Virus record (IMG/VR): IMGVR_UViG_3300020469_000015
Direction: 5' to 3' (one strand)
Origin: an uncultured virus (IMG/VR IMGVR_UViG_3300020469_000015)
Lineage: Duplodnaviria > Heunggongvirae > Uroviricota > Caudoviricetes
DNA: 61,937 nucleotides
The position numbers and the translations under genes were made by a program. Under the pieces are notes generated by a model, which was given only the letters and a program-made list of their open reading frames with translations, was not told the DNA's origin and searched no databases. Each line of letters opens with the position of its first letter. Positions within the stretch are counted from its first letter, which is position 1. Below are positions 45,067 to 61,749 of this stretch, one piece after another.

Positions 45067-45332
45067 TATCTACCTGCCTCTTTAGCCGCTTTAAGTGCCG
45101 CCTTCTTTGCCTCAATTATCTCCGCCTGCCTAACTTTTCTACCTAAAGGTAATTTTTGTACTAGACTTTCTTCTTTACCTTTTTTACTTAACCAGTAAAC
45201 GTTAACTGTATCGCCGTCTTCTTTTCTATTTGCACTTGACTGATAAGACTTCACGGCTTTCTTATAAGACATTGCTTCTATTATTTTATCTTCTTTTCCA
45301 TTATTAAAGGTAAACTCCCTCATTCTTGGCAT
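45066..45332 (-). CDS. Basic hypothetical protein (88 aa)
   Basis: ORF track; AAGGA SD; tightly coupled to its neighbours. Confidence 0.7.
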   Translation of the reverse strand: MPRMREFTFNNGKEDKIIEAMSYKKAVKSYQSSANRKEDGDTVNVYWLSKKGKEESLVQKLPLGRKVRQAEIIEAKKAALKAAKEAGR

Positions 45333-45335
45333 AAT

Positions 45336-45458
45336 TTATTCCTTTGGAGTACACTCCTCACATCTACAATGTTTACAAACTTCATACTCACTACCCTCAT
45401 TGGTCTTCATTAAGGGTGTTCCACAATGAGAAGGATGACCACAGTTGTCGCAATTCAT
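45336..45458 (-). CDS. Cys/His-rich metal-binding miniprotein (40 aa)
   Basis: MNCDNCGHPSHCGTPLMKTNEGSEYEVCKHCRCEECTPKE; AAGGAG SD. Confidence 0.75.
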   Translation of the reverse strand: MNCDNCGHPSHCGTPLMKTNEGSEYEVCKHCRCEECTPKE

Positions 45459-45459
45459 A

Positions 45460-45600
45460 TTAACTCCTTTTTTTAGTTGATTTTTTTTTAGTTGATTTCT
45501 TTTTCTTCTTTGGTTTGACTTCCATGTCTTTCGTTAATACTAACGGTTTAGGTTTCCATAGACTATCTGTCATAGTCCATAATTTAGTTAAAAATCCCAT
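45460..45600 (-). CDS. Small protein with Lys-rich tail (46 aa)
   Basis: MGFLTKLWTMTDSLWKPKPLVLTKDMEVKPKKKKKSTKKKSTKKRS; AAAGGAG SD. Confidence 0.65.
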   Translation of the reverse strand: MGFLTKLWTMTDSLWKPKPLVLTKDMEVKPKKKKKSTKKKSTKKRS

Positions 45601-45619
45601 AATATTCTCCTTTCAAAAA

Positions 45620-45634
45620 GAACAAATAGTGAAC
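45620..45634. promoter_or_regulatory. Alphaproteobacterial-type LexA box (GAAC-N7-GAAC)
   Basis: GAAC-aaatagt-GAAC in the intergenic region between divergent operons. Confidence 0.45.
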
Positions 45635-45681
45635 AAACCTGTGTCAGGATGTCGCACCTTGAAATAAAGTCAAAATAATGC

Positions 45682-45710
45682 TTGACTTTAAAGTATTTAT
45701 GTGATAGGAT
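45682..45710 (+). promoter_or_regulatory. Sigma70-type early promoter with an opposite-strand late motif in its spacer
   Basis: TTGACT-17 nt-TAGGAT with extended TGn; minus-strand CATAAATA at 45694-45701. Confidence 0.65.
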
Positions 45711-45740
45711 ATATCTATATTAAAAACGAAAGGTTATATT

Positions 45741-45995
45741 ATGAACAAAATCCAACTAATCAAGGCTGGCATCCAACAACTGTCTTTAACTGAACTGAAT
45801 GAACTTTCTAGTTTTATTAGTGATGTTAAAGTTATGAATGCTAAATCTTCTCTATCTGTAGGACAAAAAGTGTTTGTTGTACAAAAGACTAAAAAAACTC
45901 CTGGTGTAATTACTAAGATTAATCAATCTAGGTGTGTAGTAGATATGCTTGGTAGAAGTTATAGAGTACCAATGTCAATGTTGGAGGCGGCATAA
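45741..45995 (+). CDS. Hypothetical protein with C-terminal SH3/KOW/Tudor-like barrel
   Basis: LSVGQKVFVV......GVITKINQSRCVV......YRVP..ML; AAAGG SD. Confidence 0.75.
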   Translation: MNKIQLIKAGIQQLSLTELNELSSFISDVKVMNAKSSLSVGQKVFVVQKTKKTPGVITKINQSRCVVDMLGRSYRVPMSMLEAA

Positions 45996-46258
45996 TGATA
46001 ATTAAGATAGGTGATAAAGTTGAAATCTCTAAGAGAGGTATCAATAGAGACGGAATTATTACAGACATTTCTATAGGACTTACTACGTCAGACCCTGCTG
46101 GTGAGTTAGGTATCAAACTAAAAGAGTATGATACTGATATGGGTTACTTAGGTTCTATAGGTTATAAAGATGTAACATTTGGTGAAAGTGAAGGCGAATA
46201 TTGGGCGTACTTTGACCAAGTGATAACACCAACGAAAGGAGTTGTTGCTGATATGTGA
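45995..46258 (+). CDS. Hypothetical protein, SH3-like N-terminus
   Basis: IKIGDKVEI......DG.ITDI; GGAGG SD; TAATG coupling to the upstream gene. Confidence 0.7.
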   Translation: MIIKIGDKVEISKRGINRDGIITDISIGLTTSDPAGELGIKLKEYDTDMGYLGSIGYKDVTFGESEGEYWAYFDQVITPTKGVVADM

Positions 46259-46283
46259 TAGATATAAGACCTAACGGTTTTTA

Positions 46284-46464
46284 TCCTGTGGGGCGTTGTA
46301 CAGACGTATAGGTGAAACCTCAAGTATCTTTGAAATAAAAGTGAGAGTGAGTAATCTGTCTAGCACTATGGGACAGGCAACATAGAACATTTAAATGTTC
46401 ATACAAAATACAAAAAGGACATCCAAGTACCTTTGAAACAAAAGTGAGGATGTCCTTTTTTTTT
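46284..46464 (+). ncRNA. Candidate structured non-coding RNA / 3' UTR with a duplicated 25-nt motif
   Basis: No convincing ORF; stems 46284-46294/46363-46373 and 46300-46304/46355-46359; CAAGTAYCTTTGAAAYAAAAGTGAG at 46321-46345 and 46424-46448; 16-bp palindrome at 46385-46400. Confidence 0.5.
46412..46464 (+). terminator. Intrinsic (probably bidirectional) terminator with a large structured loop
   Basis: AAAAAGGACATCC...GGATGTCC followed by T9; lies between convergent genes. Confidence 0.75.
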
Positions 46465-46472
46465 ATTTTAAT

Positions 46473-46625
46473 CTATTCAACTACAGCAGGTGTTGTCGCT
46501 GGCATTTCAATTGTAACTTTTGGTAAAGGTACATTATCTACTAACCTAGCGGCGTCTTCGCCATAGTGGTGACCAAGAGTAAACGCTACTATAACTATAA
46601 CAACGTATATTAATTTCTTAATCAT
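46473..46625 (-). CDS. Small membrane-anchored protein (50 aa)
   Basis: MIKKLIYVVIVIVAFTLGHHYGEDAARLVDNVPLPKVTIEMPATTPAVVE; AAGGA SD. Confidence 0.7.
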   Translation of the reverse strand: MIKKLIYVVIVIVAFTLGHHYGEDAARLVDNVPLPKVTIEMPATTPAVVE

Positions 46626-46641
46626 TTAATTTTCCTTTTTG

Positions 46642-46800
46642 TTATGCTTTGTATCTCGCCCAAAAATTGGAAGCGACCCAAGCAATTAAACCCCACTTAA
46701 CTACTGTAAGTGGTGCCATAACGCCTGTAAAAAGCACTACAGCTAATAAAAGCAAACCGTAATCTTTCCATGCGTCAATATTATTAATCCATTTTTTCAT
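46642..46800 (-). CDS. Small two-helix membrane protein (52 aa)
   Basis: MKKWINNIDAWKDYGLLLLAVVLFTGVMAPLTVVKWGLIAWVASNFWARYKA; AAAGGAG SD. Confidence 0.7.
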   Translation of the reverse strand: MKKWINNIDAWKDYGLLLLAVVLFTGVMAPLTVVKWGLIAWVASNFWARYKA

Positions 46801-46831: not shown

Positions 46832-46915
46832 TTAGATGGATGATAGTCCTGTGGACTGTATTATTAATCCACCTATTATTGTTATGGCGTATGCCATTAG
46901 TACGACTTCTAACAT
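46832..46915 (-). CDS. Hydrophobic peptide (27 aa)
   Basis: MLEVVLMAYAITIIGGLIIQSTGLSSI; GAGG SD; TATAAATA at 46936-46943. Confidence 0.55.
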   Translation of the reverse strand: MLEVVLMAYAITIIGGLIIQSTGLSSI

Positions 46916-46934
46916 ATGTTTTTTCCTCGTAGTA

Positions 46935-47288
46935 TTATTTATAACTTTCATCATATTGAGCCGTATATATTTCATCAACTTGTTCTTGTGTTTTTAAAAC
47001 ATATGCTCCTATATGGGTGTAACCATTTAACTTTGCCCATATAATTCTTCTACCACCTGCCTGCCATTTACGATATACTTCATTCATTTTTCGTACCATT
47101 ACAGGATGTTTCATACCATTTTCTGCCATGTCATCAAATAATTTTTTATAATTAATACCTTGACTATCTGCATAAACAGTCCAACTGCCTTGTACTTTGT
47201 CCCATTTAAAAGTTACTTCTTTCAAATCTAATATTTGATACAAGTCTGGGTGGGTAATTTCTTTTGCGTGTAATATTTTTTTAGTCAT
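46935..47288 (-). CDS. ParB/sulfiredoxin N-terminal-like domain protein
   Basis: YKKLFDDMAENGMKHPVMV...GGRRIIWAKLNGYTHI. Confidence 0.7.
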   Translation of the reverse strand: MTKKILHAKEITHPDLYQILDLKEVTFKWDKVQGSWTVYADSQGINYKKLFDDMAENGMKHPVMVRKMNEVYRKWQAGGRRIIWAKLNGYTHIGAYVLKTQEQVDEIYTAQYDESYK

Positions 47289-54803: not shown

Positions 54804-55328
54804 ATGGCAACAAAAGTATTTGAACCTATAAGAAATCTGGCAGGTGATAGAGATAAATCACTTCAATGGTATCGTGGTAAAGTTAAGTCTCTTATGGACA
54901 CAATAACAAAGAATAAACTTATGAAAGGTAGACTATATGCAAGTCCACAATTCAGAGGTCTAAACTTCTTTCGTTACAATCCAAAGTACAAAGAAATATT
55001 ACCTTACTATGATATGTTTCCTCTTGTGTTACCTATACAACCAGCGTCAGGTGGATTTCTAGGTATTAATTTTCATTACTTACCAATACCGTTAAGAATG
55101 AAATTATTTGAAACATTAGAAAAGAAAGACTTTAAAGGTGATTATAGAGCACTTAAAAATGTAAGAGAGATTAAACCTACAATCAAACATTATTTAAGAG
55201 GTCAACTTGCTAGTAAATTTTTAAGACTAGATGAAGATGAATACGCACCATCTATATTTTTACCTGTACAAGACTTTAGAAAAGCAGGCGTAAGTACGGT
55301 ACATAGCGCTTCAAGGAGAATGATATAA
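54804..55328 (+). CDS. gp2: DNA end protector protein
   Basis: WY, FF.Y.PK.K..LPYYD.FPLV.......GF.GINFHYLP...R..L, P.IKHYL, .FLPVQ.F. Confidence 0.9.
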   Translation: MATKVFEPIRNLAGDRDKSLQWYRGKVKSLMDTITKNKLMKGRLYASPQFRGLNFFRYNPKYKEILPYYDMFPLVLPIQPASGGFLGINFHYLPIPLRMKLFETLEKKDFKGDYRALKNVREIKPTIKHYLRGQLASKFLRLDEDEYAPSIFLPVQDFRKAGVSTVHSASRRMI

Positions 55329-59916: not shown

Positions 59917-61749
59917 TCATTGAGGTTTAAATATGGTTATGAGTTCTTCTTTACCCTTAACCTTTATCTTATCTACTTCAACTGATTTAATATCAACCAA
60001 TTGTTCTTTCGTATAAGATGAATACAATGTCGGTGTAACTTTTCCATTTTTATCTTTATAGTTTCTTGTAGTTGCCTCTAATCGTGCAGCTAAGTTCACA
60101 GCGTCACCAATAACTGAGTAGTCTAGTCTTGCTTCACTACCCATGTTACCAACGATACATGTTCCTGTATTAACACCTGAACCTATGTTAATATCAGGTA
60201 ATCCTTTTTGTTTAAATTCTTCTTTGATTTTATCTGTTTCTTCAGCACACTCTATACTTGTTCTAACTGCCATCTCCGCATGATTAGGACAGTCAAGGGG
60301 TGCGTTCCAGAACGCCATTATGCAATCACCCATGTACTTATCAATTGTACCACCGTTCTTTAATACTATATTACTCATTCTGTTTAGATAGTCATTAATG
60401 ACTTCTACTAATCCCTCTGGATCATCTTTGTTCTTATAGTATTCTGAGATAGGTGTAAATCCTACTATGTCCATGAATAAGAAGGACATTTCTTTTCTTT
60501 CGCCACCTAGTTTTAACTTACTAGGGTCTTTTACTAGTATCGCCACTTGACGTGGATCCAGATACTTCTCAAACTGTTTTCTAATTTGTTGTTTTGCCTT
60601 AAACTCTAATATAAATCTTAAAAATGTACTATGGAATGCTACTACAAAAGCAGTCACTAATATCCAAGAAATATCAAATAACAGCTGACTTTTGAAAGCA
60701 AATGTGATATAATAACCAGCAGAAAACGTGATTGCTACTAGAGCAATGGCAATTGCCCAATATGGTAGAAATCTACATACTAATACTATAACACATCCTA
60801 GGAAAAATGCAACAGCTAATTCTATTAACCAGTCTGCTCTTTGTATTGTTTCTCCGTCAAGTATTGTCTGTAACGTATTAGCACTTACAACATAATCATA
60901 TTGTTCACCTAGTGGTGTTGCAATCACACCTCCTAATCCTTCTGCCGTCATGGCAATAATTACTGTGGTGCCTGCTGCTGATGAAAAGTCATCACTTGCA
61001 ACTGACATTGTTTTAAATTCTTTATTCCATCTTACCCATATTCTAGCATTAGCGTCTGTATTAATTGTAGCATATGCCGGTACTCGCATTGCAACAACAC
61101 CATTCATGTCTGCTTTAACTTGATAACTAGGATCACCTACTGCAACTCGTATTGTTTCAATTGCCATGTTAGGATAAACTTCATCACCTATTTTCATTAT
61201 TAAAGGTACTCGTCTTGTAACACCATCTATCTCTGGTGCTGTATTAATGACACCTACACCACTAGCACATTCTGCTAATTCAGGTAGAGGACCTACCATA
61301 CCATCCCATTCAAATAAAAAGTTTAATGGGTCACCTATCTTTGCAACACCTCGTGGCACAGGATTTGATTTACGTTTTTGTGATGTACCTACTTGAGCAA
61401 TAACTGTACCATATGTAAGTGTCTCACAAAAATCCATATCACCATCAAATCTATCTCGTTCACTAAACAATATTGGCATGACAATGATACCAGTATCGTT
61501 TTGTCTTAATTTAATTATAATGTCTGCTAAGACTTTTCTCGGCCACGGCCATTGACCATACTTTTCTATTGCTTGTTCATCTATGGTTAAGATTGTTATG
61601 TCTTGTGAGGGTGTTCTTTCTTCGTTTGCTAATAGATAGTCAAAAGATTTAAGTCGTAGTGTTTCTTTAAAACCTGGATCCTGTAAACCTACATAAGTCA
61701 ATAAGACTACAGTTACAAAGGCAGTTAGCCAATGGGTCAAATACTTCAT
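59917..61749 (-). CDS. CHASE2-domain membrane adenylate cyclase (class III)
   Basis: N-terminal TM; CHASE2 (IDEQAIEKYGQWPWPR, DGVTRRVPL, TPLG); 3 TM; catalytic FMDIVGFT, IDKYMGDCIMAFWNAP, GNMGS..RLDYSVIGDAVNLAARLE; start 61749 follows ACTAAATA by 5 nt. Confidence 0.95.
   Translation of the reverse strand: MKYLTHWLTAFVTVVLLTYVGLQDPGFKETLRLKSFDYLLANEERTPSQDITILTIDEQAIEKYGQWPWPRKVLADIIIKLRQNDTGIIVMPILFSERDRFDGDMDFCETLTYGTVIAQVGTSQKRKSNPVPRGVAKIGDPLNFLFEWDGMVGPLPELAECASGVGVINTAPEIDGVTRRVPLIMKIGDEVYPNMAIETIRVAVGDPSYQVKADMNGVVAMRVPAYATINTDANARIWVRWNKEFKTMSVASDDFSSAAGTTVIIAMTAEGLGGVIATPLGEQYDYVVSANTLQTILDGETIQRADWLIELAVAFFLGCVIVLVCRFLPYWAIAIALVAITFSAGYYITFAFKSQLLFDISWILVTAFVVAFHSTFLRFILEFKAKQQIRKQFEKYLDPRQVAILVKDPSKLKLGGERKEMSFLFMDIVGFTPISEYYKNKDDPEGLVEVINDYLNRMSNIVLKNGGTIDKYMGDCIMAFWNAPLDCPNHAEMAVRTSIECAEETDKIKEEFKQKGLPDINIGSGVNTGTCIVGNMGSEARLDYSVIGDAVNLAARLEATTRNYKDKNGKVTPTLYSSYTKEQLVDIKSVEVDKIKVKGKEELITIFKPQ

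Follow-up and report, generated by a model that had tools for sequence, protein, structure and literature searches.

The window, the whole 61,937-nt stretch of uncultured-virus DNA analysed here (IMG/VR record IMGVR_UViG_3300020469_000015), encodes at 46259-46464, probably on its plus strand, a real, lineage-restricted structured RNA of a cultured SAR11 phage, which is apparently undescribed and a member of no family tested. The element is very probably a functional RNA of some kind, and the reading that fits it best is an early phage RNA that acts as a two-site protein-binding decoy, with a probability of about 0.4. The window is a T4-like pelagiphage segment (35% GC) in which minus-strand genes surround a plus-strand island of two genes, with the element at the end of this island. 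Among 50,697 phage records, region 46240-46480 has 95.9% identity to Pelagibacter phage HTVC008M, and no other record matches it across its full length. As originally predicted, the approximately 200 nt contain no convincing open reading frame. HTVC008M (NC_020484.1, 29311-29463) carries an annotated 50-aa hypothetical protein, gp045, antisense over the element; this minus-strand frame is interrupted by three stops in L012, the most divergent member, and is probably not a gene. Its ratio of synonymous to non-synonymous changes (5:16) resembles that of the real gene (6:14) and does not discriminate. The description as a structured non-coding RNA outside the known Rfam families is likewise supported, by covarying stems, conserved cores and the Rfam comparison (Rfam 15 gathering thresholds), which gave 0 matches in the window; the best of seven hits across 45300-46700 had an E-value of 1.7, and all seven were far below threshold.

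The central feature is a 25-nt motif found at both predicted sites, copy 1 at the tip of a rod (46321-46345) and copy 2 at the tip of a terminator (46424-46448), where 100 shuffles gave an expectation of 0 matches. The copies are identical at 23 of 25 positions, whereas 300 shuffles of the element gave no 25-nt direct repeat better than 20 of 25. Both copies are held by 15 IMG/VR contigs and by 11 of 13 metagenome matches, two sets that may overlap; the other two metagenome matches (L250 and L254) were rejected as single matches antisense to degraded coding DNA, which is presumably reverse-transcriptase-like. In four divergent members tested, copy 1 is identical at 24 or 25 of 25 positions, copy 2 at all 25, and all 13 junction bases are invariant. 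L012 retains 15/16 bases of the P0 hairpin, 13/13 of the junction loop, 24/25 of copy 1 and 25/25 of copy 2, and its flanking genes are only 47/68 and 16/38 identical. The motif is intact in all 15 true loci retrieved through another part of the RNA and in the 13 closest loci retrieved through the upstream protein; therefore, its invariance is not just an artefact of the query. Furthermore, a T/C loop difference between the copies is fixed in all ten variants of the alignment, which suggests selection on each copy rather than continual conversion. The copies are separated by 86-104 nt, and the spacing in L012 differs by 17 nt, unlike that of a phased DNA site.

The two copies have the same surroundings: a stem closes with C-G, after which AAG lies opposite A. 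The module fits two registers, either UAY/GUG plus UUUG/YAAA, or CUUU/AAAG with a 6-nt loop. The claim that both T/C changes keep the pairing holds in the first register but not in the second, which also suits all variants, is favoured by ViennaRNA in copy 1 and leaves both changes unpaired; a pairing-conserving character of the differences is therefore possible. The motif itself contains no two-sided change.

The secondary structure was modelled on an alignment of 10 distinct variants with 90% mean identity. The folding z-score is -2.99, with 2 of 200 shuffles equally good, and 99.6% of 498 cells in the model are paired, compared with 45-63% in slid controls. Five of the 50 pairs are changed on both sides, two in P1 and one each in P2, P3 and the terminator stem. 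Cells with two-sided changes number 12, versus 3.4 in shuffles, and none of 500 shuffles reaches 12, in a comparison that draws on about three lineages among 10 close sequences, takes its model from the same sequences and uses a shuffle control that ignores relatedness. The tolerance of G-U changes and the upstream promoter point to the plus strand as the RNA strand.

At the 5' end, the P0 hairpin AGACC-UAAC-GGUUU (46267-46280) has 5/5 pairs invariant in the 10 variants. The long-range stem P1 (46284-94/46363-73) closes the 5' domain; as predicted, it is kept in 10/10 variants, apart from one constant G.A mismatch, and it carries two two-sided changes. It is followed by the invariant loop GUUGUAC (46295-46301), opposite one A, and by P2, whose originally proposed register (46300-04/46355-59) is broken in 5/50 cells; the shifted helix 46302-06/46357-61 is intact in 50/50 cells and includes one two-sided change. 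P2b (46311-13/46354-56) and P3 (46319-21/46345-47, one two-sided change) complete the model around copy 1. The hairpin AGG-UGAAA-CCU loses its inner pair in 6/10 variants, and the multi-stem junction proposed around copy 1 is not conserved; in its place, the model has one long irregular rod. A tRNA-like sequence of an unrelated virus (L040, 1201-1290) starts with 16 bases of the invariant loop region, a resemblance treated as chance.

The alternative hairpin at 46356-46376 does exist, with 57/60 cells paired and no two-sided change; it is exclusive with P1 and P2, and it is predicted to be energetically favoured in several variants. A conserved YAAC (46378-46381) is complementary to the invariant GUUG (46295-98), pairing in 10/10 variants with one one-sided and no two-sided change. 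Downstream, a linker hairpin (46385-46400) of variable sequence is present in 9/10 variants and deleted in L012, and is thus dispensable. By nearest-neighbour energies, the rod of P1 and P2 lies 0.9-7 kcal/mol above the best fold in 10/10 variants, and P1 is predicted to be dominant in L012 and L255 only. Either the rod may be stabilized by protein or tertiary contacts, or the 5' domain may adopt two states.

As predicted, the GGACATCC/GGATGTCC stem, which precedes T9, is capped by copy 2 and has a pair probability of 1.0 in 10/10 variants. Together, A5, stem and T9 form a bidirectional intrinsic terminator (46412-46464), in which an 8-bp GC-rich stem precedes the T-run, the arrangement of an intrinsic terminator; a simple terminator scan misses this hairpin, its loop being longer than 8 nt. 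The pair 46422/46450 changes from U-A to C-G in 3/10 variants, with loss of one whole pair.

Upstream, an early sigma-70-type promoter (45682-45710, TTGACT-17-TAGGAT with an extended -10 TG) is retained in all six readable loci (L002, L003, L007, L014, L255 and L256), including those in which the first gene of the operon is swapped. A promoter scan found no promoter-like site immediately upstream of the element, and the simplest reading is therefore that the early transcript has the element as its 3' end. The first gene of the operon, an 84-aa ORF (45741-45995, plus strand), has a weak Pfam match below the cut-off (PF24203, Phage_ProQ_C_like, E 0.035) and is replaced in 5 of 13 RNA-bearing loci; unrelated small ORFs occupy its place in L007-L009, L014, L015 and L256, where the promoter and the second gene are unchanged. 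This second gene, an 87-aa ORF (45995-46258, plus strand), is the constant upstream neighbour and is modelled by AlphaFold2 as a small SH3/Tudor/KOW-like β-barrel (mean pLDDT 78), whose best structural match has a Z-score of 7.4, a generic level. The protein has no Pfam or PHROG match and no Foldseek match at E 0.001, and atlas searches returned hypothetical clusters only, or nothing. Directly before the RNA, a conserved Shine-Dalgarno-like AAGGAG is followed by ATG TGA (46236-46258), a putative start-stop site present in every variant read (the window, L002, L003, L007, L014, L253, L255 and L256). In L012 and L253, these words lie outside the 87-aa ORF and form a separate 7-codon mini-ORF, and the element may thus have brought along the tail of the 87-aa protein.

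On the 3' side, a convergent 50-aa membrane-type ORF on the minus strand (46473-46625) bounds the slot; the genes beyond the element are convergent, and the next plus-strand ORF of at least 60 aa lies at 54804. Further downstream, HTVC008M, L010 and L012 have a 285-aa porin gene (L002 256-1113), and the window only a short membrane-type ORF (46832-46978); a porin query gave no host genome among 401. A minus-strand ORF of 40 aa (45335-45459), rich in cysteine with two CxxC-like pairs and below the ORF cut-off used for the window, is present in close relatives. The 610-aa gene at 59917-61749, presumably a sensor-domain adenylate cyclase, has many cellular homologues at 30-45% identity.

The distribution of the element was read from relatives of the 87-aa gene, 80 loci being kept of 150, of which 77 are scorable and 3 are cut. 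The RNA is present in 13 loci, 15 have the same convergent neighbour without the RNA, and 49 run into another gene, such that 64 of the 77 scorable loci have the 87-aa gene but no RNA. Among the 15 RNA-less relatives whose flanking genes are the same, eight have an almost empty slot, five a plain terminator and two an ORF-like insert; in L065 and L067, the slot after the 87-aa homologue is a short open frame without an obvious start. The RNA-bearing rows form one side of a 100/99 branch in a 44-row, 77-column tree, midpoint-rooted for drawing only, and the simplest reading is one gain of the RNA. The plain terminator of L072 contains 16 motif-core bases in order, split by a 7-nt insert, and its alignment score, with the T-run included, is reached by 0-1 of 500 shuffles; L064 and L070 are weaker. 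Terminators of this kind lie just past the 87-aa homologue in L072 and L073, and also in L064, L070 and L071, and the insert is complementary to the bases following it. By sequence likeness, the module and the L072-type terminator may be of shared ancestry, with the latter a relic or precursor of copy 2.

Wider searches stayed within the same lineage. Four relaxed viral patterns returned the same 15 contigs only, together with unrelated matches (15/32, 15/35, 15/23 and 15/25); for another relaxed pattern with at least 118 matching stretches, BLAST of the matches listed gave known members only. The covariance search with model R1 over 76 chosen loci gave none better than E 0.058, no second copy of the element was found in HTVC008M, the window or three other records, and GTDB genomes contain 0 exact motif matches.

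Public sequencing runs offer hints of expression. Of 20 runs holding part of 45600-46700, 13 are recorded as RNA, and RNA libraries of four studies yield operon contigs at 45738-46376, 46022-46291, 46226-46376 and 45864-46407, with a depth of 3-5; such contigs reveal neither level, strand nor ends, and RNA libraries can hold DNA. The contigs of two studies end at 46376, 3 nt past P1 and with no loose end, and that of a third reaches 46407; the shared end is a weak hint of processing. Among the contig pieces listed for four RNA runs, none bridges 46408-46456 or ends at the terminator, and gaps in contigs prove nothing; none of the RNA-library contigs is a separate contig of the RNA alone. The flanking late genes are mostly uncovered in the same four runs, where holes in contigs are not evidence.

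The proposed decoy would work as follows. The plus-strand RNA would be the 3' end of a short early operon, consisting of the promoter at 45682, two small genes, the RNA and its terminator, and the 25-nt module would be displayed twice at stem tips, one belonging to the 5' rod and the other to the terminator hairpin. The stems would serve as scaffolding that is free to vary, and the module, read by sequence and shape, would be fixed. Early in infection, the module would bind and titrate a host RNA-binding protein, and the terminator hairpin, perhaps together with a ribosome at the upstream start-stop site, would shield the RNA from decay. Variable stems, an invariant duplicated tip, a cargo slot and a terminator of its own are best fitted by an RNA binding protein at two sites, and from these features we infer a stable RNA, protein binding, a host target and a decoy function. 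The original idea of a protein-binding module or decoy thus stands as the best reading of a sequence-invariant motif kept twice on variable stems. Neither upstream protein is an obligate partner, the 84-aa gene being swapped in some RNA-bearing loci and the 87-aa gene being mostly without the RNA, which makes a host target likelier than a dedicated phage partner.

Several observations weigh against the decoy. The invariant P0 hairpin and GUUGUAC loop are not explained by a decoy alone, the rod is energetically disfavoured, the covariation comes from few lineages, and no target was found in 301 SAR11-type genomes. In these incomplete genomes, the 25-mer within 3 mismatches has 0/301 matches, with 2 matches in the control. 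The host-comparison genomes (0.6-1.6 Mb) were taken as Pelagibacteraceae from a sub-threshold SAR11_0636 match and the appearance of the 16S. Model R1 gave five weak matches in 121 SAR11-type genomes, all in terminators or coding DNA (L541 being coding DNA), and 30 rRNA loci contained nothing beyond chance as a motif copy or complement. A host look-alike search gave 0/25, and model R1 0/42 genomes. Matches with 3 mismatches in 2/42 genomes of another small-genome alphaproteobacterial family lie antisense to one orthologous gene and were judged chance. The loop of copy 1 presumably equals a cleavage motif of one ToxN nuclease, from which copy 2 differs.

A rather unlikely variant of the decoy is a two-state early RNA that would disable a core host RNA-binding factor in transcription, decay or RNA-based defence, or else a self-processing 5' domain that would release the 50-nt terminator hairpin as the decoy. 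Action in cis is unlikely: the structure and a bound protein, of host or phage and possibly the 87-aa product, would set the stability or processing of the early mRNA with no trans action. In favour of this reading, the promoter scan gave no separate promoter for the RNA, the 87-aa gene, with its SH3/Tudor/KOW-like barrel, lies upstream in all 13 RNA-bearing loci, and the contigs that stop at 46376 look as if trimmed to the helix, which is a weak hint. However, 64 of the 77 scorable loci of this gene are RNA-less, the structural match of its product is of a generic kind (Z at most 7.4), relatives have a plain terminator or none, and the third study's contig continues to 46407.

Decidedly unlikely is a new two-state RNA in the 5' domain, catalytic or ligand-sensing, that would cleave itself or switch between the rod and the 46356-76 hairpin with GUUG/YAAC pairing and would use the 25-mers as docking or tertiary modules. 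The junction bases, 13/13 invariant in four divergent members, resemble those of aptamer and ribozyme cores, two exclusive folds are both largely kept, GUUG/YAAC pairs in 10/10 variants, and the two RNA contigs ending at 46376 would weakly agree. Nevertheless, no Rfam ribozyme or riboswitch matches even at E 10, the HDV-like fold fits 0/10 variants on the plus strand, and the alternative state has no two-sided change. A 3-nt linker cannot span the 11-bp P1, and hence the GUUG/YAAC pseudoknot would exclude the full P1. A riboswitch was rejected because the downstream genes are convergent, leaving no same-strand gene to regulate, and the terminator is constitutive in folding.

The original suggestion of a protein-controlled terminator, in which binding at copy 2 would switch termination and let antisense RNA enter the convergent genes, is very unlikely. 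Copy 2 does cap the terminator stem, and the terminator is bidirectional between convergent units; against this, inspection of the 10-variant alignment found no conserved antiterminator helix, the candidate antiterminator pairings of the window are lost in L012, L014 and L255, the stem has a predicted pairing probability of 1.0 throughout the variants, and copy 1 is left unexplained.

More improbable still is a specific form of the decoy in which the two copies would imitate rRNA boxA, titrating NusB-NusE and lowering the synthesis of host rRNA. Copy 1 resembles the SAR11-type boxA core and has 10 consecutive bases in common with the leader boxA of another marine alphaproteobacterial order; looping out one base would rescue this copy, which then takes rank 47 among 123,844 window positions. 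The rrn boxA consensus is given as GYTCTTTAANA, a NusB-NusE site (bioRxiv 10.1101/091223), and NusB-NusE is described as reading 8 bases specifically on single-stranded RNA (PMC3177189). The element shares the CTTT-purine-AA core, and in both copies the C at position 4, the critical one, precedes TTT; the conserved G-Y start is shifted by one base, such that the G at position 1 and the pyrimidine at position 2 before TCTTT are absent and the phage copies read T-A. Scored in the boxA register with a matrix built on leader and spacer regions of SAR11 type (57 in all), the copies reach 0.6 and -5.5 bits, compared with 6-17 for host sites. The mimic was rejected against the published definition on its two wrong first positions and its score far below host sites, and the other half of the motif would be unexplained. 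The SAR11-type boxA (L462-L491) is itself degenerate, with the critical C changed to T in 21/57 sites and several spacer copies without the G. Least probable of all is a non-RNA role, as a DNA-level direct repeat (a protein site or recombination scar) or a minus-strand peptide, for which the annotated HTVC008M hypothetical and a motif free of two-sided changes could speak, against the stops in that frame of L012, the compensatory stems, the G-U tolerant changes and the variable spacing of the copies.

SAR11 is thought to depend on RNA-level regulation. No description of this RNA was found in the literature, judged by titles and the starts of abstracts, and a pelagimyophage survey reports no riboswitch-type RNA in these phages (PMC7029224). 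Fremin et al. 2023 (PMC10690425) mined IMG/VR intergenic DNA for viral candidate structured RNAs; the tables seen from that work contain no match for the motif or the ids tried, and the element may be among its unnamed candidates. HTVC008M is a cultured phage with a cultured host, which makes a conserved early-operon RNA directly testable, and a binding partner would indicate a host factor that these phages must neutralize. If the two-state or self-processing variant of the decoy is true, the element would represent a new class of RNA weapon, and no earlier regulatory RNA would be known from a SAR11 phage.

Among known RNAs, the HDV-like ribozyme has a nested double pseudoknot with a catalytic C in J4/2; it was rejected, with 0/10 fits on the plus strand and 10/10 on the minus strand, where 51/100 shuffles also match and L3 is purine-led. 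Hammerhead, twister and pistol ribozymes have conserved core words, which occur in 0/10 variants on either strand, and these too were rejected, with no Rfam match. A kink-turn contains tandem G.A and A.G pairs after a 3-nt bulge. In its second register, the module resembles a kink-turn or bulged-G (loop E) motif in its 3-nt purine bulge, A.G pair, pyrimidine-pyrimidine pair, C-G pair and closing C-G stem; however, the first G.A pair of the kink-turn is U.A in the module (U.A then A.G), and the A.A pair of loop E is absent. The NAD+-II riboswitch, as described (PMC10085692), resembles the element in that the internal loop of a stem can pair with a 3' tail. The element differs in lacking both an A5 strand behind P1 and a ribosome site further downstream that could be masked, and its P1 is 11 bp long and followed by a linker of 3 nt.

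Two phage RNA decoys provide precedents. Pseudo-ToxI, which mimics a type III ToxIN antitoxin (PMC3475682), is likewise encoded by a phage, consists of a repeated RNA unit and has a host protein as its proposed target. It is reported as tandem pseudoknot repeats, whereas the two copies of the element are parted by a structured spacer and each is predicted to be a simple hairpin. As for a cognate host antitoxin, the motif gave no match in 301 incomplete SAR11-type genomes. Racr RNA anti-CRISPRs (PMC10651486) are small viral non-coding RNAs among small genes, as is the element, and are described as working by mimicry. Unlike a Racr, the element is not a solitary repeat unit; it gave no Rfam CRISPR-DR match, and none of the 301 genomes contains a corresponding repeat. 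None of the families compared has a terminator hairpin that carries at its tip a functional module also present upstream. Intrinsic bidirectional terminators commonly combine an A-run, a GC stem and a U-run between convergent genes, and to this plan the element adds a 23-nt invariant tip that is repeated upstream.
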